Source: Gammaproteobacteria bacterium (GTDB lineage Bacteria; Pseudomonadota; Gammaproteobacteria; Ga0077536). Taken from it: DNA of 64,000 bases. The stretch covers positions 1,504,001 to 1,568,000 of the forward strand of contig CAXXLL010000002.1 of assembly GCA_963662545.2 (NCBI GenBank), in the 5' to 3' direction. Position 1 is the first letter of the stretch. Every line of letters starts with the position of its first letter. The position numbers and the translations under genes are program-made. Positions 2,624 to 28,948 of the stretch are shown piece by piece. The notes below the pieces were generated by a model, which saw only the letters and a program-made list of their open reading frames with translations, ran no database searches and was not told the DNA's origin.

Positions 2624-3313
2624 GTGGCCCACAACGGAAAATATAGGGTCCTCGTCCTCACATCTGATCCGAATACCATTGACAAGGTCACCGCGATCGC
2701 CAACACGGCCTTTGCGAACGTCACGGTCATCTTCTGGGAATTTGGCAACGTGGCGACGAAAGGCGATGTCATCAAACAGATGGAGGCATGCGACTTCAAC
2801 CTTCTCATTTCTTACATCAACGGCATCATTTTCAAACACCACCATCTGGCGCGCGCAAGCTGGGGCGCCATTAACGTTCATCCCTCGCCGCCCGAGCAGC
2901 CCGGATGCTGGGGGATCTGGTGCGCGCCCGTGATCAGGCGGGATATCCGTACACACCACGACGTGACGGTTCACGAGATTGACGAGGATATCGACCATGG
3001 CCCGATCTACATGGTCGAGCGCTGGGAGGTTGCACCGACCGACAGCATCCAGGATGTTGAGCACCGCAGCGACGAAGTCTGTATGAAGATGTACGAGGCC
3101 GTAGTCGCGAGGCTCGCAGAAAGCACCAATGGCACCGCGTGTTTCGAGCGACTCGACGAGGCCTGGAATCCCGCTACCGGTAACTTCAGGCCAGAAGATG
3201 TTCGGGACTGGTTCAGCAAACTCGACCCCGCTCACCCCGCCCACCAGGAACGGGTGTGGTTGAACCATCCCAATGCTATTTACTCGCCGCCCTATTTCTC
3301 GGATCTCGACTGA
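2624..3313 (+). CDS. Stand-alone formyltransferase family protein
   Basis: AINVHPSPP and VTVHEIDEDIDHGPI motifs of the formyl_trans_N fold; GTG start after GGAGGGAG. Confidence 0.75.
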   Translation: MAHNGKYRVLVLTSDPNTIDKVTAIANTAFANVTVIFWEFGNVATKGDVIKQMEACDFNLLISYINGIIFKHHHLARASWGAINVHPSPPEQPGCWGIWCAPVIRRDIRTHHDVTVHEIDEDIDHGPIYMVERWEVAPTDSIQDVEHRSDEVCMKMYEAVVARLAESTNGTACFERLDEAWNPATGNFRPEDVRDWFSKLDPAHPAHQERVWLNHPNAIYSPPYFSDLD

Positions 3314-3400
3314 AACCTCATCGACTTCGGCCAGGGCCCGAACAGAATACCCCGTTTGGCGAACCAACGACTTGCAATGGGATTAAGTCTTGGGCGGTGC

Positions 3401-4786
3401 GAGTTATTGTCAAAAGTGGTGTTCAGGCGGTTGAATCAAGCGGCGACCTGATTGACCCTTGTCACCTCGATACCATCTTCAAATTTAACTCCAGTAATCA
3501 CCTTGGCCAGGTAGTCGAATCCACGTAGGCGTCGCCAATTCTTCTGCGCACACCGCCCCAGCTTGAACATCATATGGAGCATGCCGTCCCGAGAGAGACC
3601 GCCCTTGGAGCGCCGGGTCCGGTGCCGGATCGTAGCGAAGGTGGATTCAATCGGATTGCTCGTGCGAATGCTTTGCCAATGTGGTGCCGGAAAATCATAG
3701 AACGCCAGCAACTCCTCACGGTCTTTCTGTAGGCACAGGGTCGCCTTGGGATACTTCGGTTCATAGGTCTTGAGGAACAGCTCGAACGCCTTCTCGGCGT
3801 CGGCCTTTGTCGCGGCCTGCCAGATCGCGTGCAGGGCTTGCTTGGCTTTGGCCTGTGCTGACTTCGGTAGGCAGTTCAGCACGTTCATCGTCTTGTGCAT
3901 CCAGCAGCGTTGCTGGCGGGTCTCACCGTAGACTTCCTCCAGTGCGGCCCAGAAGCCCATGGCACCGTCCCCGATCGCCAGCTTGGGAATATTCATCCCG
4001 CGTGACTTCAATTTCAGCAACACCTCGCGCCAGCTCTGCGTGGACTCCCGCACACCATCCTCCATCGCCAAAAAACGCTTCTCGCCTCGCTCATTGACGC
4101 CGATCACCACCAACGCACACAGCTTCGTGTGCTCCGCCCGCAGGCCACTGTAGACACCGTCCGCCCACACCTACACCCAGCGGTCTTGGTCCAATCGCCC
4201 CTCGCACCAGTCGCGGTATTCTTGCGCCCACACCTGCTTCAAGCGCGACACGGTGCTCGCCGACAGGCCCTTCGCCTGCGGCCCCAACAAAACTTCCAGC
4301 GCAGCGCCCATTTCGCCACTGGAAACGCCCTTCAAATACAGCCACGGCACGGCCGCCTCCAAGGTTGTTGTCTTGCGCACATACGGCGGCACCAGCGCTG
4401 AACGGAAGGTCACCGGCTCGCCGAGCTTCGAACGAACCTTCGGTATCCTGACCGTGACCGTCCCCAAGCCCGTCTGCAACTGTCGCTCCGGCAAATAGCC
4501 GTTCCGAACGACACCCGCTTTGTCGTCCGCCGTGCGATGTCCTGAATACTGCGCCATATATTCTGCCAGCTCGATTTCAACCGCTCGTTCAATCAGAGCC
4601 CGAGCACCGTTTCTCAAGACCTCCGTCAACGGATCTGGTATTCCTTCTCGACCTGATAATTCAACAACGTTACTCTCTCTCATGGTGGCGTATCCTCTTT
4701 GGTTGGCTTGCTGCTTGGTAACAACATTTCAACCAGATACGCCGCCTTTATTCAATTCGCTCAAACACCAGATTCAGTTATAACTC
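3401..4786 (-). mobile_element. IS256-family insertion sequence
   Basis: Imperfect terminal IRs (GAGTTATTGTCAAAAGTGGTGTTCAG / GAGTTATAACTGAATCTGGTGTTTGA); flanking direct repeat TGGGCGGTGC at 3391-3400 and 4787-4796. Confidence 0.9.
3436..4683 (-). pseudogene. IS256 transposase with in-frame amber stop at 4171-4173
   Basis: Two in-frame ORFs joined at RWV*VWADG; mutator-type motifs RNGY, YLKGVS, QRCWMHK, IRTSNPIES. Confidence 0.85.
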
Positions 4787-4854
4787 TGGGCGGTGCACAC
4801 CGGCAGTTATTCGCCGTAAGTATCAGTACGGTCTGCACCAAGCTCTGGCACCAC

Positions 4855-5388
4855 TTACTTGCGAAATACAGCCAGCGAATCCTCGCACCACTGGATCCCC
4901 GCACTTTCGCTCGCGATCCCGCGCGTCAAGCTCAGGTACATACAGCGGTATTTGAAGGGTAGTTTTTCGGGCTCGGGGAAGTGCAGCGCCTCGAGTTCGC
5001 CGTAGTGGGCGAGAAGGTCGCGGTGGTGGGCTAATTGCGCCTCGAGTTCCGTGATGATGTGATCCCGATCGATCAGGTGCGCGGCAAACAGCTTGATCAA
5101 AAACGCGTTGCGCGTCGGCTGGCGTTTGCTGGGAACGGACAGCCAGCGCTTCAATTCTTTGCGGCCGGTGGCCGTGATCCGGTGAATCTTCTTCGTGGGC
5201 CTCGTTTCCTGTGCGACGGCTCTAGCGGATACCAGTTTCTCCCGTGCCATGCGCTTGAGTTCCTGATAAATCTGCTGGTGGCTGGCCTGCCAGAAATGGC
5301 CTAGACCGCTCGTGAAGCGCTGGGTGATTTCGTAACCCGTGCCCTCGGTGTCGGACAGGGTGACCAGGATGGCGTGTCGCAGGGACAT
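4855..5388 (-). CDS. PadR-family (AphA-like) transcriptional regulator
   Basis: MSLRHAILVTL...TGYEITQRF...GHFWQASHQQIYQEL closely resembles the AphA-type PadR N-terminus. Confidence 0.9.
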   Translation of the reverse strand: MSLRHAILVTLSDTEGTGYEITQRFTSGLGHFWQASHQQIYQELKRMAREKLVSARAVAQETRPTKKIHRITATGRKELKRWLSVPSKRQPTRNAFLIKLFAAHLIDRDHIITELEAQLAHHRDLLAHYGELEALHFPEPEKLPFKYRCMYLSLTRGIASESAGIQWCEDSLAVFRK

Positions 5389-5463
5389 GTGGACTCCGAT
5401 TGCCGCTGTGTTCGCGCTTGCCGCGCGAGTGGAGGTGTTCGAATACGGTGCAATATAACAAAA

Positions 5464-5483
5464 ATATGCAAAAACTTGCATAT
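5464..5483. promoter_or_regulatory. PadR/AphA-type operator 1
   Basis: Perfect palindrome ATATGCA-aaaact-TGCATAT between divergent regulator and dioxygenase. Confidence 0.75.
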
Positions 5484-5503
5484 CAACTGGCGAAAGCTAT
5501 ACT

Positions 5504-5523
5504 TTATGCAAATAGTTGCATAA
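5504..5523. promoter_or_regulatory. PadR/AphA-type operator 2
   Basis: TTATGCA-aatagt-TGCATAA, 40 bp from operator 1. Confidence 0.7.
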
Positions 5524-5545
5524 CAACCTATTTCTAGGAGCCAAC

Positions 5546-6985
5546 ATGAGCGCCACCCCTGATCTCCCGATGTCCGATCCCTTTGCCCCTCTGGGCCATT
5601 CCATCACCGAGGAATATCACTATGCCCCGTCTATCGAAGGCCGACTTCCTCTAGGACTCGAGGGCACCTTGCTGCGCAACGGTCCCGGCCTGTTCGAGCG
5701 CGCCGGGCGGCGCAAGCGTCACCTGCTGGACGGCGACGGTCTGCTCCAAGCGTTTCGCATTGCCGGCGGCAAAGTCGATTACCAGGCGCGCTTCGTACGC
5801 ACCGAAAAATTCAAAGATGAAGAACGGGCTGGGCATTATCTCTACCCGACATGGACCACGCGCTCGGCCAAAGGCATGTTGAGCAATAGTATCGGGCGCA
5901 TCCGAACGCAGGCGGGCGTCAGCGTCGTAGCTAAGCGGGGCCGGGTCTTCGCGTTCGACGATATCGGCCTGCCCTACGAAATCGACTCCTCGACGCTCGC
6001 AACGATCGGCGTTTACCAACCCGGAGATCGATCGGGGTCTCAAAATTTCAACGCCCACACGCGTTACGACAGTGCGACCGGTGACTGGCTGCTTTTCGGC
6101 CAGGAACATGGCCGGCGCTATGAAATCAAGGTCTTGATTCTCGATCACCAACTGCGCCGGAAAAAATTCTTCAAGATCGCGCCACCGCACGCAACCTACC
6201 TGCACGACTGGTTCGCGACCGAACACTACGTCGTGTTCAACCTGCACGCGCTACGGATCAATCCATTTCCCGGTCTGCTCGGCTTGAAGGCGTTTACCGA
6301 GTGTCTGCACTGGGCACCCGAACGCGGCAATCACCTCATGGTGATCGACAAGAACACGGGGCAGGTCGTGGCACAGGGAGACGCTCCAGCGGCTTTCATG
6401 TGGCACAGCATGAATGCCTATGAACAGGGTGATTCGATCGTCGCGGATTTCGTCGGCTACGACGAGCCTGATCACTTCATCGGCGCTGATCCCTACTTCG
6501 AACGTATCATGCGGGGCGAGCCCGGGCGCTTCCACGCGCCGGGAACGCTGCGGCGTTACCGTATCCCGCTTTCCTCCGGGCAGGTGGAAGAGACCATCGT
6601 CGACGGTGGACATTTTGAGTTTCCGATGATCGACGTGCGCCGGGCCGGCCGCACATACCGCTTCGGTTACCTGGCCGAGGCTGCACAAGGCACCGGCTGG
6701 CACGACAGTGTCGCGCGCGTCGACATGGAAACCGGAGCCAAGTCGCGATTTACTTTCGGTGAGGGCGTACAGGTCGGAGAACCCGTGGTTGTCCCACACG
6801 TGGATTCCGACCCGGACACCCAAGCTCAATCCGTGTGGCTGTTGAGCGTGATATTCAAAGCCGATACACGGACCAGTGCGCTGGCGGTGGTCGACGGTGA
6901 GCACATCGAGGATGGCCCGATTGCGACAGTCGAGCTCGATCACGCCACACCGCTCAGTTTTCACGGTACGTGGATGGAAGCTTAA
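5546..6985 (+). CDS. Carotenoid oxygenase / lignostilbene dioxygenase family protein
   Basis: GTLLRNGPG, HLLDGDG, conserved His residues (AHT, LHD, WHS, SFHGTW), EFPMID, GEPVVVP. Confidence 0.9.
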   Translation: MSATPDLPMSDPFAPLGHSITEEYHYAPSIEGRLPLGLEGTLLRNGPGLFERAGRRKRHLLDGDGLLQAFRIAGGKVDYQARFVRTEKFKDEERAGHYLYPTWTTRSAKGMLSNSIGRIRTQAGVSVVAKRGRVFAFDDIGLPYEIDSSTLATIGVYQPGDRSGSQNFNAHTRYDSATGDWLLFGQEHGRRYEIKVLILDHQLRRKKFFKIAPPHATYLHDWFATEHYVVFNLHALRINPFPGLLGLKAFTECLHWAPERGNHLMVIDKNTGQVVAQGDAPAAFMWHSMNAYEQGDSIVADFVGYDEPDHFIGADPYFERIMRGEPGRFHAPGTLRRYRIPLSSGQVEETIVDGGHFEFPMIDVRRAGRTYRFGYLAEAAQGTGWHDSVARVDMETGAKSRFTFGEGVQVGEPVVVPHVDSDPDTQAQSVWLLSVIFKADTRTSALAVVDGEHIEDGPIATVELDHATPLSFHGTWMEA

Positions 6986-7376: not shown

Positions 7377-9668
7377 ATGACACAAGTGACAAAGCTCGAC
7401 GTACCCAAAGGCCATTCCCTGCATCACGTCGTCTGCCCCCACGACTGCCCGGACACCTGCTCGATGCTGGTCACGCGCGATGACCGCACCGGCCGCGCGG
7501 TTCGCGTACAAGGGGATCCGACCCACCCCATTACGCGCGGTCATCTCTGTAACAAAGTCAATCATTACCTCGATCTGGTCTACAACGACAAGCGCGTGCT
7601 TTACCCCCACAAGCGGGTGGGGCCCAAGGGACCCGGTGCCCGGTTCGAGCGCATAGGCTGGGACGAAGCCCTCGACACTGTGACCGGGAAATTTAAACAG
7701 ATCATCGTTGAATTTGGTTCGGAGGCGATCCAGCCTTTCAATTTTTCCGGCACGCTCGGGATGATCGGGTATTGGGGGATGGACAACCGCTTCTGGAACA
7801 AGATGGAGGCCGCCCGCCTCGAAATGTCCATCTGCGTTCACGCTGCTTACTGGGCCTGCCAGCACACCTATGGATCGGCCAACGGCGCGGACATCGCCAT
7901 CGCGTCCGAGGACGCCGAGGTGATTATTCTCTGGGCTTTTAACCCGGTCTCGACCGGGGTCCATGCCATGCCCTTCATCCGCGAAGCACGCGCACGGGGC
8001 TGCAAGATCATCGCCATCGATCCGCGCCAGACCCGCTCCACCTGGATCGCGGACTGGCATGTCCAACCACGGCCGGGTACGGATGGTGCGCTCGCGCTCG
8101 GGATGATGAAGGTCATCGTCGACAACGACCTGCACGATCTCGATTTCCTCGCGCAGCACACCCGCGGATGGCAGGAACTCATCGAAACCAGGCTGCCCGA
8201 CTACCCACTCGACCGGGTCTCGAAGATCACGGGCTTGCCGGCCGCCGACATCGAACGGCTGGCGCTCACTTACGGCTCGACCAGAAAAACCAATATTCGC
8301 GCCGGTCACGGACTCAACCGGCATCAGAACTCGGGGCAGATGTGCCGCGCGATACTGCTTTTGCCGGCCATCACCGGCGCGTGGCGTGAGCGTTGCGGCG
8401 GTGCCGGCTTCGGCCGCATCGAGGAAAACTGGGATCCCTTCTTTTTCGAGGAATTCCAACGCTTCGATCTCGGGGACCGCGACAGCAAGCGCCTCGTAAA
8501 CATGGTCCAGATGGGCCAAGCGCTGGTTGACGACATCGGCGTCGACGGCGAAAAACTGGATCCCCCGATCAAATGCCTGTTCGTCTACAACGCCGATCCC
8601 GCGAACTGTGTGCCTAATTCGAACAATATGCGCAAGGGCCTCATGCGCGACGATCTGTTCACGGTGGTACACGACACTTTCTGGACCGATTCCTGTGATT
8701 ACGCGGACATCGTCCTGCCGGCCGACACCCAGCTCGAACGTACGGACTTCCACGGTTCTTACGGTTTTTTTCATTACGCGATGAATCTGCCCGTGATCGA
8801 GCCGCTGGGCGAGAGTGTGTGCAACAGCGAACTCTTCCGCCGCTTGGCACACAAGATGGGGTACGTCGAGACCAGCGACAATGCCTTCACGCAGACCGAC
8901 GAAGAGATCATTCGGGATGTGCTGGTCGACGGTGGGCGCAACCCGCTGCTGGAAGGCGTTACCTACGAGTACATGAAGGAAAACGGCTGGGCCATGGGCC
9001 GCTTCGATTCGCCCCGCCGGCGCTACACCGAGATCGGCTGGCCGACCGCGGACGGCAAGATCCAGATCTATTCCGATGCCTTGAAGGAACTGGGCCAGGA
9101 TCCGCTGCCGACATACGTGCCCGAGGTCGAGGGCCAGGAGGATGCCCTGCGCGAGCGTTACCCCTTGCAGGTTCTGAGTACTGCCTCGCACTATTTCATC
9201 GGCGATTCGTTCCAGTCGGTCGAGCGCCTGCGCGCGATGGAGTCGCGCCCGACCTTTGAAATGAACCCCGATGATGCGAGGACTCGCGGAATCGAAGACG
9301 GCGATCTGTGCCGTTTGTTCAATGATCGCGGCGAGACCTTTGGCTACGCCGTCGTTATCGAAGGCCTGCTGCAGGGTGTTCTTGGTACCCAAAAGCAGTT
9401 CAAGGGCAGCGACACGCCCGGGGGCGTCAACGTCAATGCCCTGAACTCCGAAGTCCTGTCGGATTTCGGCTTTGCACCGACGTTTTATTCCTGTCTCGCG
9501 GAAGTGGAGAGGGCCAGCGACGCAATGTGCCAGCAGGCGCTGCTCAAGGAATGGGGTGGCGAGGCGGGTTACATCAGGAACTGGCGCGCGCAGAATCCCG
9601 GGGTGGAGGCGAGCGACACAGACATCCTCGAACAGGCGCGCACCGCGCACCCGGGAGTGTTCGACTGA
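7377..9668 (+). CDS. Molybdopterin-dependent oxidoreductase (DMSO reductase superfamily) with N-terminal [4Fe-4S] site
   Basis: CPHDCPDTC...GHLCNK, PGTDGALALG, DYADIVLPA, C-terminal MNPDDARTRGIEDGD. Confidence 0.92.
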   Translation: MTQVTKLDVPKGHSLHHVVCPHDCPDTCSMLVTRDDRTGRAVRVQGDPTHPITRGHLCNKVNHYLDLVYNDKRVLYPHKRVGPKGPGARFERIGWDEALDTVTGKFKQIIVEFGSEAIQPFNFSGTLGMIGYWGMDNRFWNKMEAARLEMSICVHAAYWACQHTYGSANGADIAIASEDAEVIILWAFNPVSTGVHAMPFIREARARGCKIIAIDPRQTRSTWIADWHVQPRPGTDGALALGMMKVIVDNDLHDLDFLAQHTRGWQELIETRLPDYPLDRVSKITGLPAADIERLALTYGSTRKTNIRAGHGLNRHQNSGQMCRAILLLPAITGAWRERCGGAGFGRIEENWDPFFFEEFQRFDLGDRDSKRLVNMVQMGQALVDDIGVDGEKLDPPIKCLFVYNADPANCVPNSNNMRKGLMRDDLFTVVHDTFWTDSCDYADIVLPADTQLERTDFHGSYGFFHYAMNLPVIEPLGESVCNSELFRRLAHKMGYVETSDNAFTQTDEEIIRDVLVDGGRNPLLEGVTYEYMKENGWAMGRFDSPRRRYTEIGWPTADGKIQIYSDALKELGQDPLPTYVPEVEGQEDALRERYPLQVLSTASHYFIGDSFQSVERLRAMESRPTFEMNPDDARTRGIEDGDLCRLFNDRGETFGYAVVIEGLLQGVLGTQKQFKGSDTPGGVNVNALNSEVLSDFGFAPTFYSCLAEVERASDAMCQQALLKEWGGEAGYIRNWRAQNPGVEASDTDILEQARTAHPGVFD

Positions 9669-10789
9669 TCGCGAGCCGCTCCGAGCTAAGCCGCGATCCG
9701 CTGAGCCCGCCCGCGCCCAGGGGTGAGATCTCGAAGCGCCGCGTGGTCGTCAACGACGCCGAGATCGCGTCCATGCGGGCATTGACCCACGATACTTTCG
9801 AGATCGTCGTCCGTTGCGCGCCTGGCGGCCCAACGATATTCGCCCGAGCGGGACAGTTTCTCGCTCTGAAATTCCCGGGCATCGACAAGCCGCGCCCTTA
9901 TTCGCTGGCACGTGCGCCGGAGGCGGAACGCCCGGGCGAACACACATTCTTCATCCGTCTCGTCCCCGGCGGCGAAGTCTCGGGCTGGCTCGCGGCCGGC
10001 GACCGCACCGGTGAGCGGCTCGAGATCAGCGGGCCGCTCGGCGCCTTCGGCCTCGATGATTCCTCCGTGCCCATGATTTGTATCGCCGGAGGCAGCGGCA
10101 TGAGTGCGATCAAGGGCCTGATTGAACATGCCTGCAACCGGCAGGTGGAGCGCGATTGCACTTTCATCTACGGAGCGCGTGAACAGCGCGATCTCTATTG
10201 CCGCGAGGACATCGAGGCGATCCAATCAAGCTGGCACGCCGCGTATCGATTCGAATTCGTGCAGGTGCTTTCTGAAGAACCGATGGGCACCGACTGGAAC
10301 GGCGCGCGCGGACTGGTGACGGAACATGTCAAACAGGCGTACCTCGATAGCGCTCGGATCGATCCCTCCCACTGCAAGGCGTATTTCTGTGGACCGCCGC
10401 CCATGATCGAAGCGGGGGCGGCGGTACTTACTGAAGCGGGCGTTTCCGAGGATGACATATTCCGCGACATCTTCGAGGATGCAAGTTCGCCTGCGCCAGT
10501 GATCGACAACGTGAAATGTGTGCTGTGCGACGAATGCCTGCTGGTCAAACCGGTCACTGGCTGCATCGTCGAGGCCTCGAGACTCGAAGTGGATTCGGAC
10601 GGTCAAGTCTCGGGATTTGATCCCATCGATCCGGCGCGGTCATCAGGCCTTTACTACAACGCGCTGGTCATCGACGAGCAGGCATGCATTCGTTGTTACG
10701 CCTGCGTCAGCGCTTGCCCGCACGATGCGATCGCGCCAGGTAACGCGCGTATTGCTCAGACGTTGCGGCAGCGATCCCGTTCGTTGTAA
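9665..10789 (+). CDS. FNR-type FAD/NAD(P)-binding reductase fused to a C-terminal ferredoxin domain (start uncertain)
   Basis: RPYSLA, GGEVS, AGGSGMS, YFCGPPPM; C-terminal CVLCDEC and CIRCYACVSACP. Confidence 0.85.
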   Translation: MIASRSELSRDPLSPPAPRGEISKRRVVVNDAEIASMRALTHDTFEIVVRCAPGGPTIFARAGQFLALKFPGIDKPRPYSLARAPEAERPGEHTFFIRLVPGGEVSGWLAAGDRTGERLEISGPLGAFGLDDSSVPMICIAGGSGMSAIKGLIEHACNRQVERDCTFIYGAREQRDLYCREDIEAIQSSWHAAYRFEFVQVLSEEPMGTDWNGARGLVTEHVKQAYLDSARIDPSHCKAYFCGPPPMIEAGAAVLTEAGVSEDDIFRDIFEDASSPAPVIDNVKCVLCDECLLVKPVTGCIVEASRLEVDSDGQVSGFDPIDPARSSGLYYNALVIDEQACIRCYACVSACPHDAIAPGNARIAQTLRQRSRSL

Positions 10790-10815
10790 CGCAGGAATGC
10801 TGAGTACTGTGCGGC

Positions 10816-11553
10816 TTAGGCCGCGCGTTCGACAGACCACATCCGGCGCGCGAAGGCGGGGTAGGGATCGGCGATCGCTCGGGCGACGTCGCCACGGATT
10901 AGCCCGAGTGTCGCGGCATCTGGAGCAGGTGTTTCGGGTACGTCGGGCGGGCAATCGAAATCGAAGCCGGTCTCGTCGCGAACTTCATCTACAGTGTGGC
11001 CGGGGTGGACGCTTGCGAGGCGGAAACGCCGGCGGTCGCGATCGAACAGGAACAGGCACCGACCAGTGACGAGCGCATGCGGTCCGCCGGGCCGGTAGAC
11101 GTTGGGCGGGCTGGTCCCTGGCGCACTGATGAAATCGACCTTGGGAACGAACACGCGCCGCGAATGTTCTTCGCGAAAGAGGATTACGCGCGGGACCATG
11201 AAATAGAGATAGGCCGATCCAAACGCACCCGACCAACGTACGTCTTGCTCCGGATAGCTGCCGATCCCGGTGAGGTTGATATTGGCCTCGCCGTCGATCT
11301 GTCCGCCGCTCAGGAAGAACACGTCGATGCGGCCTTGCCCCGCGCAGTCGAACAGATCGACGCCGCCGTCGGTGCGGTAGGGCTCCTGTTGGCTGCCGAT
11401 GATCGACAGGCGTGTCGTTCCGCCCGAGCGGTGCCGGGCAAGGAGCGCCGCCGATCCGGGGATCGGTGACAACACGCCGACCGCGATGTGGCCCGCGCCG
11501 TCGAGGAGTTTGGCGATCGTTGCGATCAGCAGTTCTTCGCTGCGGAAATCCAT
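10816..11553 (-). CDS. CoA-transferase subunit B (glutaconate CoA-transferase-like)
   Basis: FFLSGGQIDGEANINL, LASVHPGHTVDEVRDETGF. Confidence 0.8.
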   Translation of the reverse strand: MDFRSEELLIATIAKLLDGAGHIAVGVLSPIPGSAALLARHRSGGTTRLSIIGSQQEPYRTDGGVDLFDCAGQGRIDVFFLSGGQIDGEANINLTGIGSYPEQDVRWSGAFGSAYLYFMVPRVILFREEHSRRVFVPKVDFISAPGTSPPNVYRPGGPHALVTGRCLFLFDRDRRRFRLASVHPGHTVDEVRDETGFDFDCPPDVPETPAPDAATLGLIRGDVARAIADPYPAFARRMWSVERAA

Positions 11554-11586
11554 CGCTCGATTCGTGCGCGCCAGTGCGGCGAGTGC

Positions 11587-12414
11587 CTAGGCGGCGACGC
11601 CGGCCTCGTTCAAGACGTGTTCGTCGAGATACGCGCGGAAATCCTCCGCCGTTGCCGCGGCACGCGCATAATCGGCGAGCGCTTCGGCGTCGACGTCGTA
11701 ATGCCCGGGCAGGTTCAAGGGCCACGAACCCTTTGGCGCTTCCGCGATCCCCGTTACATAGAGCGACGAGATGCTCGCCGCCGCGAGTTCTTCGCGTTCG
11801 AGGATGTTGAAGTCCACGATCGCCTCGGCGGTGACAAAGGTCTGGCGCGCGGCATGAGCCATGATCTTGAGTTCGGCCTGGCGAGCGATGTAGAGGTTGC
11901 CGGCGCGATCGGCTGCGGGAACGTGGAATAAGGCCACGTCCGGTTGGATTGCCGGCAGCGCGACGATGGGGTCGTCGTCGGCGAACGGATTGTCGATGAC
12001 CTTGATATCGGGGCGGTTGGCGAGGATGTCCGATCCGATCAGGCCCCGCAGCGGCATGAAGGGAATGCCTTTCTCGGCGGCCTGCAGGCCGGCGTAGATC
12101 GCCGGGCAGGTCGCGTCCAGGATCCGGACTGTGCCGTTTTTCACCGCGTCGACAAAACGCGGCGCGGGACCGAACTCGCCGAGCGACACGCCCGCCGTTT
12201 CGATGGTATCGACGCAGCCCGCGCCGATCAGCAGATCCGGCAAGATGCCGCCGGTTGGTACCGTGATCACGTGTAGGCCGCGCGCACCGCGTCGGATCAA
12301 GGCATGGCCGAGCGCCATCGGTACACCGCAATCCTTGAACAGGGCGAGCCTGGCGCCGTCCGGAATGCGGGCGGCGAGGGCGTCGACACTGTCGGCGATG
12401 ATCGGATCGTCCAT
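11587..12414 (-). CDS. CoA-transferase subunit A
   Basis: DLLIGAGCV, GLQAAEKGIPFMPLRGLIGSD, PDVALFH...ADRAGN. Confidence 0.85.
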   Translation of the reverse strand: MDDPIIADSVDALAARIPDGARLALFKDCGVPMALGHALIRRGARGLHVITVPTGGILPDLLIGAGCVDTIETAGVSLGEFGPAPRFVDAVKNGTVRILDATCPAIYAGLQAAEKGIPFMPLRGLIGSDILANRPDIKVIDNPFADDDPIVALPAIQPDVALFHVPAADRAGNLYIARQAELKIMAHAARQTFVTAEAIVDFNILEREELAAASISSLYVTGIAEAPKGSWPLNLPGHYDVDAEALADYARAAATAEDFRAYLDEHVLNEAGVAA

Positions 12415-22267: not shown

Positions 22268-23578
22268 ATGGCGGCACTCGCAGAAGAACTGACAAAACTC
22301 GGCCAGCCCGCGCCCGACGTACGGATCGCTAAATGGGACGAGACGCCGAAAACGAAACTGGGACCTTTTGGCGCCGAGCCCAAATGGACCGAGGAAGAAG
22401 CCGCCATCGTCGACACCTTGACGCGCTTCGCCGAGAACGAAATGCGTCCGACCGGAGAGATCCTGGACAAGATGTCGCCGGAAGATGTCATCGCGCCGGG
22501 CTCGCCACTGTGGGGGATGTACGAAAAGTTCATGGAGATGGGCTTTACCGTCGACGTGATGCTGGACATGGAGCCCAAGCAACGGGCGAAGATCCTGTGC
22601 CTGTTCTACGAAATCCTGGGCTGGGGTGATTCCGGCCTCGCCATTTCGATCGGCGCCTCGACCCTGCCGCGCTATCTATCGCGCCTGTTCGGCAATGACT
22701 TTCTGGCTGAACTTTGCGCCGACGACAAGATCGGGTCCTGGGCGATCACCGAATCCGATCATGGCAGCGATACCCTCGATCCGGATCGTGAGGTGGCCCA
22801 TCCCCGAGGCACCCACGGGCGGCCCAACTGCGTGATCACCTTGAAGTCGGACAAGATCATCATCAACGGCCAGAAAGCGGCCTGGGTCTGCAACGCCAAC
22901 ATCAGCGAGGTCATCATCCTTTACGCCGCGGCCGATTCCGGTGCGGGCGCCGACCCCGATCACGGCGCCGTGGTGGTCATGCCGACCGACGTCAAGGGGT
23001 ACAGCCGCGGCAAGCCCTTGAACAAGATGGGGCAGCGCGCGCTGAACCAGGGCGAGCTCTTTTTCGACAACGTCGAATTGCCGCTCGAGCACGTCCTCGC
23101 TGGCCCCGAGAATTATCAGCGCTGCCTGTATTCGATTCATACCGAGGCGAACGTCCTCATGGGCGCGACCTTCGTGGGACTGGCGCGGCGCGCGTACGAA
23201 CTTGCGCACGCTTACGCGCATGAGCGCAAGCAGGGCGGGGTGCCGATCATCCGGCATCAGCACGTGGCCTATCGCCTGTTCCACATGTTCCGCAAGGTCG
23301 AAGCCGCCTGCGCGCTGACGCGTCGCGTCGCGGAGTACAACACGGTCAACGAGCACCCGGCCCTGCACGCCGCGATGACCTCGAAAGTCACGGGCACGCA
23401 GACCGCATTCGAAGTGGCCAGCGATGCCATACAGATGTTCGGGGGCAACGGTGTGACGCGTGAGTATCCGGTTGAGAAGCTGCTGCGCGACGCCCGATCT
23501 TCGATGATCGAGGATGGATGCAACGAGGTGCTCGCCATGAAGGGCGGTTTTGCGCTGGCCGATCCGGAACTGCTCTGA
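22268..23578 (+). CDS. Acyl-CoA dehydrogenase
   Basis: AITESDHGSD, INGQKAAWV, QMFGGNGVTREYPVEKLLRDAR. Confidence 0.92.
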   Translation: MAALAEELTKLGQPAPDVRIAKWDETPKTKLGPFGAEPKWTEEEAAIVDTLTRFAENEMRPTGEILDKMSPEDVIAPGSPLWGMYEKFMEMGFTVDVMLDMEPKQRAKILCLFYEILGWGDSGLAISIGASTLPRYLSRLFGNDFLAELCADDKIGSWAITESDHGSDTLDPDREVAHPRGTHGRPNCVITLKSDKIIINGQKAAWVCNANISEVIILYAAADSGAGADPDHGAVVVMPTDVKGYSRGKPLNKMGQRALNQGELFFDNVELPLEHVLAGPENYQRCLYSIHTEANVLMGATFVGLARRAYELAHAYAHERKQGGVPIIRHQHVAYRLFHMFRKVEAACALTRRVAEYNTVNEHPALHAAMTSKVTGTQTAFEVASDAIQMFGGNGVTREYPVEKLLRDARSSMIEDGCNEVLAMKGGFALADPELL

Positions 23579-23754: not shown

Positions 23755-25374
23755 GTGATGACTGCAGGTTCCGGCGACACCATGATCCTCGCTCACCTGG
23801 TGGTGGATCGCATGGCCTCGCGGCCCGATCTCGACGTGCTGACGTTCGTCAATATCGAGCCCGACGGTTCGTTTAACGACGAAATTCGCACTTATAGCGA
23901 TCTCTGGCGGAACGGGCAGCGCGTCGCCGCGGCACTCGACGAAGAGGGCATGCAGGCCGGCGATGCCTTCGGACTGATCACGCTGAACCATCCTGAGTTC
24001 GTCGATACTATGGTTGGATCGTCGATCGCCGGCACGGTGTTCGTACCGATCGATCCGCGCACGCGCGGCAAGAAGCTGTCGTACATGTTGAACCACGCAC
24101 AATGCCGCGGCGCGGTGATCGGAGATTACGCGCTGCCGTACCTGCTGGAGGTTGCGTCGGATTGTCCGCGTCTCGAGTGGATCTGGGTGTTGTCGACGTC
24201 ACAAGGCCTTGCAACGGTCGACACTTCCCTGCGTCGGCGTTCGGTAGCGGACATTCTGGCTACCGAAATAACCGAGATGGCGATTCGCGTCGATGATCCC
24301 GAAACGCCGATGCAAATGCTCTATACCTCGGGTACGACCGGCGATCCCAAGGCGATACTGTCGCCTTATTCACGGTTCGGGTTCGTCGCGAGCCTCGGCG
24401 AAGCGCTCGGTATGAATGCCGACGACCGGCCGTACACCGGTTTGTCGCTGACGCACGCGAACGCGCAATTGATCACCTTGGGAACGACCCTGCACATGGG
24501 AGTGCGCGGCGTGTTTGCGCGCAAGTTCACCAAATCCCGGCTGTGGGGCACGACGCGCCACTACGGTTGCACCTTGTTCAACCTGCTGGGCGGCATGACG
24601 ACCGCGATCTATAGCGAACCCGTACGCGAGAACGATGCCGACAATCCGGTGCGCTACGTGCTTAGCGCGGCGATGCCGGCGGCGATCTGGAAAGATTTCG
24701 GACGGCGCTTCGGCATCGAGGTCTACGAATTTTACGGTGCGGCCGAAGGCGGACTGACACTCAATCCACCGGGCGCCGGCCCCGTCGGCAGTATCGGCAA
24801 ACCGCCGCCCAGCATGATCGGCCGCGTCGTCGACGACAACGATGTCGAATGTCCGCCCGGCACCCCTGGAGAGATCGTCTTTCAAAATGCCGACGGTACC
24901 TGTCCGGTCATCTCGTATTTCAAGAATCCGAAAGCCTCGAAGGAGAAAACGGCAGGTGGCTGGCTGCGGATGGGGGATGTCGGATGCCGCGACGAGAACG
25001 GCTGGTTTTTTTTCCTTTACCGCAGGGGCGGTGGTATCCGTCACAACGGTGATTTCGTCAATCCGGCCTTCGTGGAAAAGGAACTGGCCGAGCATCCGCA
25101 GGTCGACGACGTGTTCGTCTATGGCGTGACTTCGGCGAATGGCGTGCCGGGCGAAAAGGACGTGATTGCCGCCATCGTGGCCGTCGACCGCAATGGTTTC
25201 GACGCCCAGGATGTCTTCTGCCTGTGCCGCAAAAATCTCGAATCGAACTTCGTGCCGACTTATCTGCAACTGGTCGATGAGATCCCGAAAACGGCCTCCG
25301 AGAAACCGCAGGAGCGTTTCCTGCTCGAAGCGTTCGACGCCGACGCGGACAATGTCATCACCGAATCGAGCTGA
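23755..25374 (+). CDS. ATP-dependent acyl-CoA ligase (CaiC-like AMP-binding enzyme)
   Basis: YTSGTTGDPK, YGAAEG, GWLRMGD, IPKTASEK. Confidence 0.9.
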   Translation: MMTAGSGDTMILAHLVVDRMASRPDLDVLTFVNIEPDGSFNDEIRTYSDLWRNGQRVAAALDEEGMQAGDAFGLITLNHPEFVDTMVGSSIAGTVFVPIDPRTRGKKLSYMLNHAQCRGAVIGDYALPYLLEVASDCPRLEWIWVLSTSQGLATVDTSLRRRSVADILATEITEMAIRVDDPETPMQMLYTSGTTGDPKAILSPYSRFGFVASLGEALGMNADDRPYTGLSLTHANAQLITLGTTLHMGVRGVFARKFTKSRLWGTTRHYGCTLFNLLGGMTTAIYSEPVRENDADNPVRYVLSAAMPAAIWKDFGRRFGIEVYEFYGAAEGGLTLNPPGAGPVGSIGKPPPSMIGRVVDDNDVECPPGTPGEIVFQNADGTCPVISYFKNPKASKEKTAGGWLRMGDVGCRDENGWFFFLYRRGGGIRHNGDFVNPAFVEKELAEHPQVDDVFVYGVTSANGVPGEKDVIAAIVAVDRNGFDAQDVFCLCRKNLESNFVPTYLQLVDEIPKTASEKPQERFLLEAFDADADNVITESS

Positions 25375-25726
25375 CGCGGACTTGGGGTAGTCTACGAACG
25401 AACACTGGAATCAACGGCAATGCGTATCGCTTCGTCTTCGATTTTGAAAACCAACGCGCGGCCAGTAGATCTCTTGAGTTTTTTTGCGTAGGTTGTTGGT
25501 CCTCGAGGTGTGTCGTCAATCCCCGAAATCGTCACTTCCAGATTCGCTAGAGGTCTTCACTTTACGCGTGAATACTCGCTGGATTGGCTTTGATCGCCCT
25601 CAAAAAAATCCCCCCAATAGGAGCTTACGTCACCGGCGAGCGCGCGAAGTTGAGAAACATCTTCGTGTCATACCCCGCGTTTGTTGCTATCAGTTGGGGA
25701 GGAAACCTGCGGGAGGTCCGTCGGAA

Positions 25727-25880
25727 ATGTCAACAGCCAAATCCACGCATGGGCATTGCGCTCCGGGCTTCCATGCCGTCGGTGCTGCGTTTGAGCGCAA
25801 TATGGTGGACGGAGACATTGGCGCGGCTTTCGTGCTCTACCAGGGCGGCGCGATTAAAGTCGATGCGCGGTGGCGGGTGC
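25727..25880 (+). pseudogene. N-terminal fragment of a serine hydrolase (beta-lactamase-related esterase)
   Basis: GGGAGG RBS; HGHCAPGFHAVGAAFERNM...GAAFVLYQGGAIKVD, after which similarity is lost. Confidence 0.6.
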
Positions 25881-25964
25881 GGCGAGTTGGAAAGTCTGGA
25901 GGTTGCAGCGTATGCGCTGCTTCCAGTCGTGATGCGGTTCAGTAATTCATAAAGGAGAGAGCAG

Positions 25965-26273
25965 ATGAGGAGTGTTTCAAACCTGGCTTTGGGAACCTTG
26001 TTCATATTGTTCGCAGTCGGAACCATCGATATTTCCGTTGCAGTTGCCGATGGGGATCTCGACATGGTCTTTCAAGTTGAAGGAATGACCTGAGGCAGCT
26101 GTGCACGGACGGTCCGTGAGACCATTAAAAAAATTGCTGGGGTGACGCGCGTTCGTGTTGACGTGCAACAAAAGCGCGCCTGGGTGAGCTGTAGCTCCGA
26201 GGTATCCGCCCAGCAAGTGATGGCGGCGATTGCATCGAATGGAAGATATCAAGCGAAGCTTGTCGAGGACTAA
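25965..26273 (+). CDS. Exported heavy-metal-associated (HMA, MerP/CopZ-like) domain protein, probable selenoprotein (UGA at 26091-26093)
   Basis: AAAGGAG RBS, signal-peptide-like N-terminus, FQVEGMT-[TGA]-GSCARTVRETIKKIAGV...; frame stays open to TAA at 26271-26273. Confidence 0.85.
26104..26118 (+). promoter_or_regulatory. Putative bacterial SECIS hairpin
   Basis: CACGGA-CGG-TCCGTG stem-loop with a G-containing loop, beginning 10 nt after the in-frame UGA. Confidence 0.6.
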
Positions 26274-26384
26274 CTCCCTCACACGGAACGGTTCCCCTTC
26301 AGCAACCTTGAGACAACTTTCAGGGTTCGATAAACGTCGCTGCGAGTAACAGTACGACAGAATGTCTTAACCGTTACAAAAAGC

Positions 26385-27179
26385 CTAAAACAATCCCGGT
26401 GCCTTCACGTTTAGCGCGCGCTGCATGACCTCGAGTTCCTTATCGCGATCCGGAAACGGTGCGGGACGCGTAAACAGCTTGTCCTGCTTTAATTCCTCGA
26501 CCACTTCTTCGCTGCGCGGGTAGGCTTCGCCGTATTTGTTCATGAAAAAGTGATTTTCGAACGGTTGGCGTGGACGCTGGCCGCCGGCTTCCCAGTGTTC
26601 CATCGGATAACCAACGCACTGCATCAATAGCAGGCGGCAGTGATCGGGTATACCAATTGCCTTGAGGATCTCATCCCCTTCCGGCGTGCCGAGAAAACAC
26701 GTTCCAAGACCGAGTTCATAGGCCATGAGGGTTGCCTGGGCCATACCTTGGCCGCAGTCGATTTCATTCAAGCCCGGCTGCTTTAGGAAGTCCTTAATGC
26801 CTTCGAAGACGGGCAGGAATTTTTCTTCCAGGGTCTTGTGTCTTATGTCTTTGGGACCAAATCCGAGCGCCCCGATGTCGACCAGCTGGCGCAGGCGATC
26901 GGCTTGTCCGTCGACCATGCCTGGGTCGCAATACCAGACGATTACGACCGGCGCGATCCGTAGCTGCCAGCCGACGACGACGGCTTTCAACGAATCGAGC
27001 ACCTCTTTGGATGCAGTTTCGCGATGAATGGCCACGGCCTTCAGGGTCTGCACGTTGCCCCAGTGCGTCGCGATGCGGGCGGCCTCGAACATCATCTGGA
27101 TTTTCTCCGGCTCCACCGCTTTGTAGGGCTTCAAATACCGGATCGAACGGCGGCGGCCGATAGCTTCCCTTAATTCCAT
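26385..27179 (-). CDS. Nitroreductase family protein
   Basis: AIGRRRSIR, LMAYELGLGTC, VGYP. Confidence 0.85.
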   Translation of the reverse strand: MELREAIGRRRSIRYLKPYKAVEPEKIQMMFEAARIATHWGNVQTLKAVAIHRETASKEVLDSLKAVVVGWQLRIAPVVIVWYCDPGMVDGQADRLRQLVDIGALGFGPKDIRHKTLEEKFLPVFEGIKDFLKQPGLNEIDCGQGMAQATLMAYELGLGTCFLGTPEGDEILKAIGIPDHCRLLLMQCVGYPMEHWEAGGQRPRQPFENHFFMNKYGEAYPRSEEVVEELKQDKLFTRPAPFPDRDKELEVMQRALNVKAPGLF

Positions 27180-27341: not shown

Positions 27342-28097
27342 CTAAAAGATTCCCTTGTTCTGCACACCGTCCACGACGATGGTTACCCCGGAAATCCAGT
27401 TCGCGCGCGGTGAAGCGACGAACACGATGGCGTCGGCCACTTCGTTTGGCGTGCCCATGCGGCCGAAAGGAATCGTCGAGACGACTGCATCGTACATCTC
27501 CTGATCGTTCTGTTGCACGACGTCCCAAAAACCTCCTTCAATGAAAATCGACCCGGGCGCGATGGAGTTCACCCGAATGTTCTTCGGCGCGAGTTCCTGG
27601 GCCATGGTCTTGGCATGCGTAACGAGCGCCACTTTGACCGCGGAGTAGGCTGGAGGATCTCCCGCCCTGAGGCCGGAAATCGAGGAGATGTGAACGATGG
27701 ACCCACCACCGGCGGCTGCCATCCAGGGCACGACTTTTTGTGTCGCTCGCACCGTACCCATCAGGTCGACGTCGATACTGACCTTCCAGCCCGCTTCATC
27801 GTCGGTCATGCCGAAGCCCGAGGTGTTATTGATCAGGATGTCCGTGCTGCCGAGGGCGTCATGCGCGCCGTCCAGAAATGCGTTCAGTGAATCGGCGTCG
27901 CCGACGTCGCAGATGGCGCCGTAAGCTTTGACGCCTGCGGCTTCGATATCGGCGCAGGTTGCATCGAGGGCTTCCTGACCACGGGCGCAAATGGCGACAT
28001 TTGCCCCTTCGGCGGCAAGCAGCAGCGCCGTGCACCGACCGATGCCTTTGCTGCCACCCGTGACGATTGCGTTTTTGTCTTTTAATCCGAGGTCCAT
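27342..28097 (-). CDS. Short-chain dehydrogenase/reductase
   Basis: TGGSKGIG, YSAVK, IRVNSIAPG. Confidence 0.93.
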   Translation of the reverse strand: MDLGLKDKNAIVTGGSKGIGRCTALLLAAEGANVAICARGQEALDATCADIEAAGVKAYGAICDVGDADSLNAFLDGAHDALGSTDILINNTSGFGMTDDEAGWKVSIDVDLMGTVRATQKVVPWMAAAGGGSIVHISSISGLRAGDPPAYSAVKVALVTHAKTMAQELAPKNIRVNSIAPGSIFIEGGFWDVVQQNDQEMYDAVVSTIPFGRMGTPNEVADAIVFVASPRANWISGVTIVVDGVQNKGIF

Positions 28098-28117: not shown

Positions 28118-28948
28118 CTACCGTTTCCCGTACACGCCCTTCACGGTAATGGTTCGGCCTTCTTCATTGTTGCTGAGGGCGTTTTGCATTTTTGTCTCGA
28201 CGTCATCGGATACGATGACTCTAATCGTCAGTAGTGTCGGGTCATGTGCCTTGATAACGGCATTGCGTTTCTGGCTCGTTTCTATTACCTGTCGCGTCGT
28301 CTCCTCTAACGCAATCCTTTCGAGGCCGGCATCATCCAGTAATTTCCGGAGTGCATCCAGCGTTACGAGAAAATTAATTTCCGGCCGCGATGCCCAGAAT
28401 GTCGGCAGGTGAATGGGCTGGCCATCGCCCGCCAGCACCGCCTCGAATGCGAAAAGCCCGCCTGGTTTCAGGATGCGCGCGACCTCGCTGAAAAAGGCAG
28501 CCTTGTTTGCGACGTTCATCATCATGTTTTGCGACCAGGCAGCCTCAGCGCAGGCGTCTTCGAGCGGGAGCGCCGTTGCGCTGCCGTGGTGAAACTCGCA
28601 GTTCGCGGTCATGGCTAGCTTCTCCGTCAATACGGTTGCCGCGCGCACGAATTCCCGGGTCAAATCGACGCCGATGACTCTGCAGCCGAATTCCGCCGCC
28701 AGCGTTCGTGCCGGTCCGCCAATACCGCAGCCGACATCCACCACCGCCATGCCTTCGCGAATTCCGGAAAACGCGGCGAGATCCCGCGTCGACGCGATAC
28801 CGCCGCCATGGAACTGATCGAAGGGCGTGAGATCTTCAGCCGTCAATGCTTCGAGATCTTTACCGGCATTTTCGAGTGCTTCGAATATTCGCGCACAAAT
28901 GTCCACCCCACCGTAGTGGTCGTCGATATTCGAATGGATCGTTGACAC
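28118..28948 (-). CDS. Class I SAM-dependent methyltransferase
   Basis: DQFHGGG, VDVGCGIGGPAR, LKPGG. Confidence 0.9.
   Translation of the reverse strand: MSTIHSNIDDHYGGVDICARIFEALENAGKDLEALTAEDLTPFDQFHGGGIASTRDLAAFSGIREGMAVVDVGCGIGGPARTLAAEFGCRVIGVDLTREFVRAATVLTEKLAMTANCEFHHGSATALPLEDACAEAAWSQNMMMNVANKAAFFSEVARILKPGGLFAFEAVLAGDGQPIHLPTFWASRPEINFLVTLDALRKLLDDAGLERIALEETTRQVIETSQKRNAVIKAHDPTLLTIRVIVSDDVETKMQNALSNNEEGRTITVKGVYGKR

Follow-up and report, generated by a model that had tools for sequence, protein, structure and literature searches.

An in-frame TGA hides a probable exported, single-domain HMA selenoprotein in a gammaproteobacterial genome

We propose that an overlooked gene at positions 25965..26273 (plus strand) of a gammaproteobacterial stretch of 64,000 nt (the window, whose positions are used throughout) encodes a selenoprotein composed of a 28-residue export signal and one HMA domain, in which the first metal ligand is selenocysteine (Sec, U) and the metal motif reads GMTUGSC. 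The UGA at 26091 has been conserved as a sense codon, the genome from which the window comes (G000) carries the machinery for Sec insertion, and shortly 3' of the codon there is an RNA element that is conserved as well. On the sequence evidence set out below we regard it as very nearly certain that the gene encodes a genuine Sec-containing protein, and the complete explanation, export signal and HMA site included, as probable.

The coding sequence (CDS) is complete, with 102 codons and a TAA stop (26271-26273), and its sole internal stop is the TGA at 26091..26093, codon 43, where U43 would be the first ligand of the GMT-U-GS-C metal site. GGC AGC TGT comes right after this TGA, giving the local reading M-T-U-G-S-C. 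A Shine-Dalgarno (SD) sequence, AAGGAG (25952..25957, plus strand), lies 7 nt 5' of the ATG at 25965. An earlier note on this DNA had described a ribosome-binding site, a leader and a 102-aa frame broken only by the TGA at 26091, all of which our re-reading of the window bears out; it had also placed the TGA on the first Cys of an HMA motif, in agreement with the match of PF00403 to residues 35-80 (45 bits against a gathering cut-off of 24.8). Open reading frame (ORF) calling with table 11 breaks the gene in two, 25965..26093 (42 aa) and 26142..26273 (43 aa), and these short pieces are all that ordinary calling gives, so that the ORF track does miss the gene, as the same note had said.

The case for Sec begins with the conservation of the codon. 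The family set comprises 16 sequences, namely the window copy, a paralog from G000 itself (C2:2211093-2211398, 79% identity), a copy in a second species of the genus (G002, the congener; 84% identity) and 13 full-length metagenomic relatives (52-65% identity). The paralog, found by a six-frame search that read through stops, holds exactly one TGA, as does the congener copy, at the same codon. The earlier note had suggested looking among homologues for Cys or TGA at this position; in a gapless alignment all 16 sequences have TGA at codon 43 and none has Cys, an agreement that goes well past chance, and frameshifts or second stops are absent from the family. The relatives came from a metagenome scan based on an alignment with X at the Sec position, for which two search patterns left the Sec codon out. 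It returned 24 loci: the 13 full-length relatives, all with TGA, ten distant HMA domains and one spurious N-terminal match, and all ten of these distant, weaker HMA hits have the first Cys of GMxCxxC at the TGA position. No further TGA-bearing copy was found in 81 genomes of the order (one single family), and the seleno-HMA gene had no match in G001, the genus's third genome, which is 89% complete. The possibility, also raised earlier, that reads would show TGC or TGT is not borne out: contigs from three separate studies cover the TGA, and no other letter occurs at that codon.

The pattern of substitution agrees with translation beyond the TGA. Among the three copies of the genus (g1), codons 44-102 contain 22 columns with synonymous changes only and 12 with non-synonymous changes, and leader codons 1-42 contain 7 and 15, respectively; judged by these counts the region 3' of the TGA is under purifying selection. 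Paralog and congener have the very same AAGGAG, although their sequences diverge further 5', and a strong SD stands at the same place in every relative. Within the gene, at 26077-26110, the assemblies of three separate runs all break and the summed depth is about 2-4x that of the flanks. The paralog does not differ over these 34 nt, which makes it probable that the samples of those three runs contained both copies.

The genome can make and deliver Sec. The earlier note had pointed to selA, selB, selC and selD as the genes to look for, and all four were found above their curated cut-offs: the tRNA-Sec gene (selC) at 62.2 bits (cut-off 47), with the anticodon TCA according to ARAGORN, selA at 587 bits, selB at 417 and selD at 283. 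The retained TGA in all 16 sequences, the selection 3' of it and this full set of Sec genes uphold the claim of a hidden, mis-called selenoprotein. Furthermore, a scan of G000 for read-through frames, followed by a search for Pfam domains that span the in-frame TGA, identified at least 11 other such genes, three of the AhpC/TSA family, six CMD/AhpD-like, one Rdx and one UGSC, which argues that the cell makes use of this machinery. Codon usage by itself had proved too loose a filter for read-through frames, passing 2242 of 26,660 candidates; motif and shadow filters left 133 survivors, 20 of which were given to Pfam and seven of which proved false, being two genes in one frame or a one-sided domain.

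Two overlapping, mutually exclusive hairpins follow the UGA and could serve as the Sec insertion sequence (SECIS). Hairpin A, CACGGA-[CGG]-UCCGUG (26104..26118, plus strand), begins 10 nt after the TGA and is the one that the earlier note had claimed; hairpin B, GACGGUC-[CGUGA]-GACCAUU (26108..26126, plus strand), begins 14 nt after it and in the window copy consists of four apical pairs, a C/A mismatch and two more pairs. Fold energy alone supports neither, since the 66-nt stretch 3' of the TGA folds no better than its shuffles (162 of 200 fold at least as well; z = 0.83). The two differ in their conservation. Hairpin B is formed in all 16 family sequences (-3.9 to -11.6 kcal/mol), with a 5' arm of consensus G-R-C-R-G-U-C, a 3' arm G-N-C-C-G-U-C in 15 of the 16 and an invariant CGUGA loop; its cells are 89.6% paired, a figure that slid controls never bring above 46.8%. 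Hairpin A, for which 69.7% of cells are paired, is favourable in only five of the 16 (the three genus-g1 copies, L122 and L123) and has a positive energy in the other 11; it is clade-specific. The position and sequence given for hairpin A earlier are thus correct, but it is not the conserved SECIS.

Constraint on the coding sequence falls on the same place as hairpin B and exceeds what the protein requires. At codons 49-54, a shared residue is spelt by different codons in 13 of 505 sequence pairs (2.6%), compared with 37-43% elsewhere in the gene; codons 50-54 show zero synonymous variation, and the windows starting at codons 47-52 have the lowest synonymous variation among 96 six-codon windows tested. 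The loop recurs elsewhere in the genome, which lends hairpin B independent support. CCGUG occurs at +13 to +30 after the UGA in six of 13 other selenoprotein genes of G000, which were picked by the residues near U and by Pfam rather than by RNA structure, against a background of 2.37% of 168,379 TGA sites (P = 2.7e-7); in the strict Pfam-verified set it occurs in four of 11 (P = 9e-5). The carriers usually present it as a pentaloop CGUGN closed by C-G, as in CUC[CGUGA]GA, GAC[CGUGA]GUC and CUC[CGUGC]GAG. The SECIS loop signature of the organism is C-CGUGN-G, about 10-17 nt after the UGA.

We consider hairpin B the likely SECIS of the window copy, and two points count against it. No compensatory double change is present in hairpin B, and covariation among the 16 sequences is nil for A and B alike; as neither hairpin shows a change on both sides of a pair, the case for hairpin B is one of conservation. 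In addition, hairpin B is weak in the window copy (-3.9 kcal/mol), where a G-to-A change at 26124 (Val-to-Ile, codon 54) has weakened it, and the competing hairpin A is stronger (-7.8). One could suppose instead that in this copy and its genus hairpin A has replaced the family's hairpin B as the working SECIS. It is the more stable structure in the paralog as well (-7.8 against -5.4 kcal/mol for B), it is retained in all three genus-g1 copies, once by way of a C-G to U-G change, its 10-nt spacing is that of the hairpin in the GrdB-like gene of G000 (the UGSC hairpin stands at 11 nt), and window copy and paralog each have a mismatch of their own in hairpin B. We nevertheless think such a replacement unlikely. 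Besides its positive folding energy in the 11 other sequences, hairpin A has a loop that varies between the two copies of G000 (CGG here, CAG in the paralog) and that matches none among 13 other SECIS candidates of the genome. The zone free of synonymous variation is centred on B (codons 50-54), while the 5' arm of A (codons 47-48) varies, and the apical GGUC-CGUGA-GACC of B is intact in the window copy and the congener, the paralog having A for the first G of the arm.

The protein itself is predicted to be exported. Residues 1-28 (25965..26048, plus strand) form a predicted signal peptide of the Sec type, with a basic N-terminus, a hydrophobic core and A-x-A before the cleavage point. A26 and A28 are invariant in the 14 of 14 aligned sequences, and the leader appears to fit cleavage by signal peptidase I before D29. 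BamA is present in G000 (847 bits), so the cell is diderm and has a periplasm. An AlphaFold model, made from a 14-sequence alignment with Cys standing in for Sec, has a block-mean predicted local distance difference test (pLDDT) score of at least 94 over residues 31-100 and leaves residues 1-28 disordered (pLDDT <50). Its elements, E32-39, H44-55, E60-66, E71-76, H82-90 and E96-100, follow one another as beta-alpha-beta-beta-alpha-beta, and the metal loop lies between beta1 and alpha1, as the HMA fold demands. Foldseek gave 89 matches at E <= 0.001, of which the listed ones are almost all HMA domains, the best being the periplasmic MerP 1osd_A from Cupriavidus metallidurans (listed as Ralstonia metallidurans CH34) with a TM of 0.92, a root-mean-square deviation of 1.1 A and 30% identity. 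A sequence-profile search of the PDB returned the same HMA set, and U43 aligns with the first Cys of the solved HMA domains. The second ligand of the UxxC is Cys46 (TGT, 26100..26102, plus strand), invariant in 14 of 14 aligned sequences. A third cysteine, Cys76 (TGT, 26190..26192, plus strand), stands in W-V-x-C at the end of strand beta-3 and is likewise invariant in 14 of 14 aligned family members; the WV-x-C signature is missing from the ten distant Cys-type HMA hits.

The surroundings of the gene point to a former partner. Directly upstream, at 25605..25952 (plus strand), lies the decayed remnant of a MerT-like gene, of which only the C-terminal tail is recognisable. This tail, AAYALLPVVMRFSNS, matches the C-terminal end of the MerT-like proteins of two relatives, L126 and L116. 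Compared with the congener, the remnant frame has 6 synonymous and 22 non-synonymous changes over 116 codons, and the congener's remnant contains in-frame stops and a 1-nt indel, as expected of a sequence that decays neutrally. An intact MerT-like gene stands directly upstream of the seleno-HMA gene in five relatives (L116, L117, L126, L127 and L128). Its product has 123 residues and a TTCCALP motif, and in the three loci where the junction was read (L116, L117 and L126) it ends 12-17 nt 5' of the seleno-HMA start. Partial leftovers are seen as half of the gene in L124, a 14-residue tail in L125 and a 53-residue stretch in the window. The earlier note had held that no mer or cop genes lie beside the gene, which is true of intact genes but overlooks the decayed MerT-like remnant, and that the protein is stand-alone, which does not survive the comparison with these five relatives. 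To judge from the gene orders, seleno-HMA is an orphaned merP-like gene and was not ancestrally stand-alone.

Further upstream the relatives show what may have been a larger gene set. L117, L126 and L127 have two genes 5' of the MerT-like gene, and L116, which is cut short, shows the second only. The first encodes a product with a leader and a CxxC HMA-like segment (193 residues in L126), and the second a product of about 300 residues that ends in Phe and matches no family; outer-membrane barrels end in Phe. The row in L126 (L126:340-3240) opens with a MerR/CueR-like regulator and a 119-residue CC-motif membrane protein and continues with the CxxC HMA-like protein, the barrel-like protein, the MerT-like protein and seleno-HMA. 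L126 thus contains all six cassette genes and the shorter loci L127, L117 and L116 the last three or four. No reductase is within view of the cassette loci, and merA was not seen in any locus. L117, which extends past seleno-HMA, ends its row with a HicB gene on the opposite strand. In L118-L123, of which L118, L119 and L122 were scanned for neighbours, the context differs: L122 has a flavin monooxygenase on its upstream side, and all three scanned loci have an MFS transporter on the downstream side.

The following model seems to us to fit these observations. SelB with Sec-tRNA(Sec) would recognise the hairpin at 26108-26126, with its CGUGA loop closed by C-G, and insert Sec while the ribosome is on the UGA; the competing hairpin at 26104-26118 would be melted by the approaching ribosome, because it starts 10 nt after the UGA. 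The precursor would then be exported via the Sec translocon and cut after A-V-A, giving a mature protein of 74 residues that would bind, in the periplasm, a soft, thiophilic metal of the Hg(II), Cu(I) or Ag(I) class. Its metal site would be two-coordinate, made of the U43 selenolate and the C46 thiolate where MerP and CopZ use two thiolates. The ancestral role was probably the capture of metal for hand-over to a MerT-like transporter, given the gene rows of the relatives, with their MerT-like, CxxC HMA-like, barrel-like and MerR/CueR-like products. In G000 the transporter gene would have decayed while the seleno-HMA gene was kept and duplicated, and the protein most likely acts there without MerT, either buffering metal in the periplasm or carrying it to some other partner. 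Of the periplasmic seleno-metallochaperone proposed in the earlier note, the predicted leader, the single HMA domain and the UxxC stand, and we infer the metal class, Hg or Cu. Binding of soft metal in the periplasm is, on balance, the function we favour, with less assurance than the presence of Sec.

A bolder reading, which we offer tentatively and think doubtful, takes the whole family into account. The family would be a periplasmic, MerP-like one that exists in the selenium form only and forms the metal-capturing end of an undescribed soft-metal cassette, made up of the MerR/CueR-like regulator, the CC-motif membrane protein, the CxxC HMA protein, the barrel and the MerT-like transporter. 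In genus g1 it would have been freed from the cassette, duplicated as a unit of 380 nt and kept by selection, as the cell's only HMA protein, for a MerT-independent, selenium-dependent role, for instance as a very high-affinity periplasmic trap for ions of the Hg or Cu class.

The main alternative to metal binding is a periplasmic redox selenoprotein, in which U43 and C46 would cycle between selenol/thiol and selenenylsulfide on a substrate or partner protein. Most bacterial selenoproteins are redox proteins, and all 11 other verified selenoproteins of G000 belong to redox families (AhpC/TSA, CMD/AhpD-like, Rdx and UGSC). The intact neighbours in the window include oxidoreductases (nitroreductase, SDR, P450 and acyl-CoA dehydrogenase), the genome is without MerT, a MerA over the cut-off or another HMA protein, 1osd, the structure that matches best, shows MerP in its oxidised (disulfide) state, and the invariant C76 could be a resolving residue. 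However, the protein keeps the HMA fold and the metal motif GMxCxxC apart from U for the first C, the relatives place the gene after a MerT-like transporter, and the L126 row starts with a metal regulator of the MerR/CueR type. HMA domains are not known as oxidoreductases. Reasoning from the fold topology, C76, at the end of beta-3, would lie at the far end from the metal loop. A redox role is therefore improbable in our estimate, and periplasmic binding of a soft metal remains the preferred function.

Several observations nonetheless weigh against our explanation. Sec in the protein is deduced from sequence evidence, and its export is predicted from a reading of the sequence. The 16 family sequences amount to 15 distinct CDSs and 11 distinct SECIS rows from few clades and are not independent. 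The MerT-like protein reaches 25.8 bits on Pfam MerT, below the cut-off of 32.9 (28.6 bits on NCBIfam MerT), and the cassette regulator falls below the cut-offs of both CueR (132.7 against 147.4) and MerR (126.5 against 150.85). G000 has no MerT by Pfam or tblastn, no MerA above the cut-off (405.7 against 454.45) and no HMA-domain match besides the two seleno-HMA genes, so that a partner for the hand-over cannot be named. The genes still intact around it in the window serve lipid or xenobiotic oxidation, not metals. Finally, the sole metatranscriptome contig, 26231-26487, covers the last 43 nt of the gene, the intergenic region and the end of the neighbour gene, and says nothing on transcription either way.

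Two simpler accounts of the locus can be set aside. If the TGA were a plain nonsense mutation or an assembly error, the locus would be a dead HMA gene, as might be suggested by the two short ORFs of table-11 calling, the pseudogene upstream, the intact neighbours unrelated to metals and the weak codon-usage scores of the gene (8.6 and 5.1 log-odds units). Such a gene would hardly keep TGA at codon 43 in every one of the 16 sequences, the most distant of them 52% identical, never Cys or another stop, with neither frameshifts nor further stops, nor stay under purifying selection in its 3' part while the adjacent remnant drifts neutrally, and the TGA was read in three separate studies; conservation, selection, machinery and base call lead us to reject this account, to which we give next to no credence. 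A 101-codon antisense ORF (25977-26282, minus strand), open in the window copy, the congener and four more relatives, is equally rejected as the real gene, its chance being negligible, since one or two stops break the antisense frame in 10 of 16 relatives and the plus frame has the Pfam HMA match and a mostly synonymous substitution pattern.

The protein resembles MerP most closely in its architecture. Like MerP (1osd, 1afi; TIGR02052) it has a leader, here predicted to be cleavable, a single HMA domain of about 72-74 residues and a metal site at the beta1/alpha1 junction, and in five of the 16 family loci its gene follows a MerT-like gene as merP follows merT. It differs in having Sec for the first Cys, in the extra invariant Cys76, in its score (38.6 bits against a TIGR02052 cut-off of 92.55) and in its setting, for the window copy has lost its merT to a remnant and is not in a mer operon with merR and merA. 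By analogy the protein would work like MerP, yet it stands outside the curated MerP family, and indeed every curated cut-off was missed in an NCBIfam search. The best match in that search, NF047957 (CopZ_AFE_1862), scored 55.9 bits against a cut-off of 85. CopZ-type chaperones (NF047957, NF033795; 1k0v, 2qif) share the fold and the motif but have Cys, not Sec; CopZ is cytoplasmic and without a leader. The second-best match, NF041115, is likewise small and of the HMA type and has Sec in its metal motif, but it scored 50 bits against a cut-off of 95, has UxxU (two Sec) rather than UxxC, and its 74-position model aligns with the mature domain only (residues 34-101), without a leader. Despite the tetrapeptide U-G-S-C, the protein does not belong to the UGSC family (PF24696 / NF041046), which gave no match at Pfam E <= 0.01 or NCBIfam E <= 1.

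That HMA/MerP-like selenoproteins are a known class, as the earlier note had stated, is confirmed by NF041115, NF045683 and the tables of published work, as far as those tables show. Table 2 of the GOS paper has a 'Mercuric transport protein MerP' selenoprotein, with two sequences, as a 'previously described' family (PMC2398784). It too is a MerP-type selenoprotein, from marine metagenomes, and to judge from the table row, which gives neither motif nor domain nor sequence, it may or may not be the present family. In review tables the UxxU (seleno)protein NF041115 appears as a 'putative mercuric reductase' (PMC9312934, PMC13188914), and the same tables hold a UxxC cation-transporting P-type ATPase selenoprotein (TIGR01525 row) and MerT-family selenoproteins (PMC13188914, PMC9312934). 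The UxxC ATPase and NF045683, a selenoprotein resembling a MerT/CopZ fusion, have Sec in a heavy-metal-handling motif, as here, but are large membrane proteins or fusions, unlike the present protein, which is free, single-domain and predicted to be exported; against NF045683 it scores 33 bits (cut-off 375) and has, with its 102 residues, no MerT part. In the available text of a 2026 review of selenoproteins the terms 'MerP', 'PF00403' and 'HMA' are absent (PMC13188914), and the BSepDB and deep-Sep papers contain no mercury, copper or heavy-metal terms. Beyond the GOS table row, literature searches found no description of such a protein in the texts at hand.

Searches of public collections suggest why the family has been overlooked. 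A near-length word search of 5.8 billion proteins returned nothing, and the best 150 of a profile search of 1.84 billion representatives are multi-domain HMA proteins but for one 58-residue fragment, which begins two codons after the TGA. No Cys form of the family was found in the word search or among these best 150, below which a single-domain Cys relative under about 87 bits would fall. A scan of genome contigs with patterns that included Cys at the Sec position gave ordinary HMA proteins only, at up to 52% identity over partial length, and is uninformative on Sec relatives. Four clusters of 42-residue N-terminal fragments are present in the public protein collections, which thus hold the family as halves only, the 42-residue N-terminal and 58-residue C-terminal pieces, and surveys of metal handling in these bacteria therefore miss it, even though seleno-HMA is the only type of HMA protein in G000. 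We take it, from sequence comparison, as a new family within a known kind, the exported Sec-containing HMA protein, found in the selenium form only. HMA/MerP-type selenoproteins being already on record, the finding adds to a known theme rather than starting a new one. An exported HMA site that pairs a selenolate with a thiolate would be a natural test case for the effect of selenium on Hg(II)/Cu(I) affinity and exchange, and for why some lineages keep an obligately selenium-dependent metal binder after loss of the transporter.

The other genes around seleno-HMA in the window are an acyl-CoA dehydrogenase (22268-23578), an AMP-binding enzyme (23755-25374) and, all on the minus strand, a nitroreductase (26385-27179), an SDR (27342-28097), a methyltransferase (28118-28948) and a cytochrome P450 (29078-30427); the AMP-binding enzyme and the nitroreductase are neighbours in the congener too. 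A 153-codon ORF at 25484..25945 is not a gene, as the congener has a stop in that frame. A promoter and terminator scan of 25350-26450 found neither a sigma-70-like site nor a terminator on the plus strand. The 380 nt that the window copy and the paralog share, and beyond which they have nothing in common, reach from 16 nt 5' of the ATG to 58 nt 3' of the CDS; apart from the SD, the flanks on either side showed no conserved element to account for so sharp a duplication. The paralog (L141:6094-6402, within L141, G000:C2:2205000-2218000) and an OYE/dienoyl-CoA-reductase-like gene are bracketed by two copies of the same DDE_Tnp_1 transposase (4587-5933, minus; 10433-11860, plus). This layout resembles a composite transposon, yet the stretch in common with the window copy is just 380 nt.

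The other selenoprotein genes of G000 lie on contigs C2 and C3. The AhpC/TSA genes are at G000:C2:938684-939151, C2:936104-937243 and C2:1605084-1605728, the CMD/AhpD-like genes at C2:919622-920251, C3:2556842-2557363, C2:1242747-1243838, C2:1763979-1764527, C3:2091457-2092107 and C3:2095538-2096185, the Rdx/SelW-like gene at G000:C3:2013543-2013785 and the UGSC gene (135 bits) at G000:C3:2104973-2105557. Two more are probable selenoprotein genes, an AhpD-like paralog at C2:1394608-1395726, which shares 41-50% identity with two CMD genes, and a GrdB-like gene at C2:1219199-1220098. The SECIS loop signature also helped to point to further candidates. Two paralogous read-through frames, C3:590797-591351 and C3:2120132-2120683, have KAFT-x-G-U-T-x-E-C-K-S around the TGA and, downstream of it, a hairpin of the GCUC[CGUGA]GAGC type; these are likely to be further selenoprotein genes, as far as their sequences indicate.

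The loci of the Sec machinery have features of their own. One of the CMD genes ends 88 nt 5' of selA. The selD match lies within a 761-codon open frame (G000:C2:1272288-1273844, minus strand) that also has a weak match of the pyridine-nucleotide-disulfide-oxidoreductase type at 1273521-1273844, which suggests that SelD may be fused to an N-terminal oxidoreductase domain. Between selB and the tRNA-Sec gene (L140, G000:C2:1247000-1262000) stand metal-related genes (6086-6574, plus; 9605-10447, plus; 2967-4873, minus), the content of the locus being a MerR-family regulator 50% identical to the cassette regulator of L126, two genes for YbjQ ('putative heavy-metal-binding'), an HlyD/ABC pair and a number of small ORFs without a family match.

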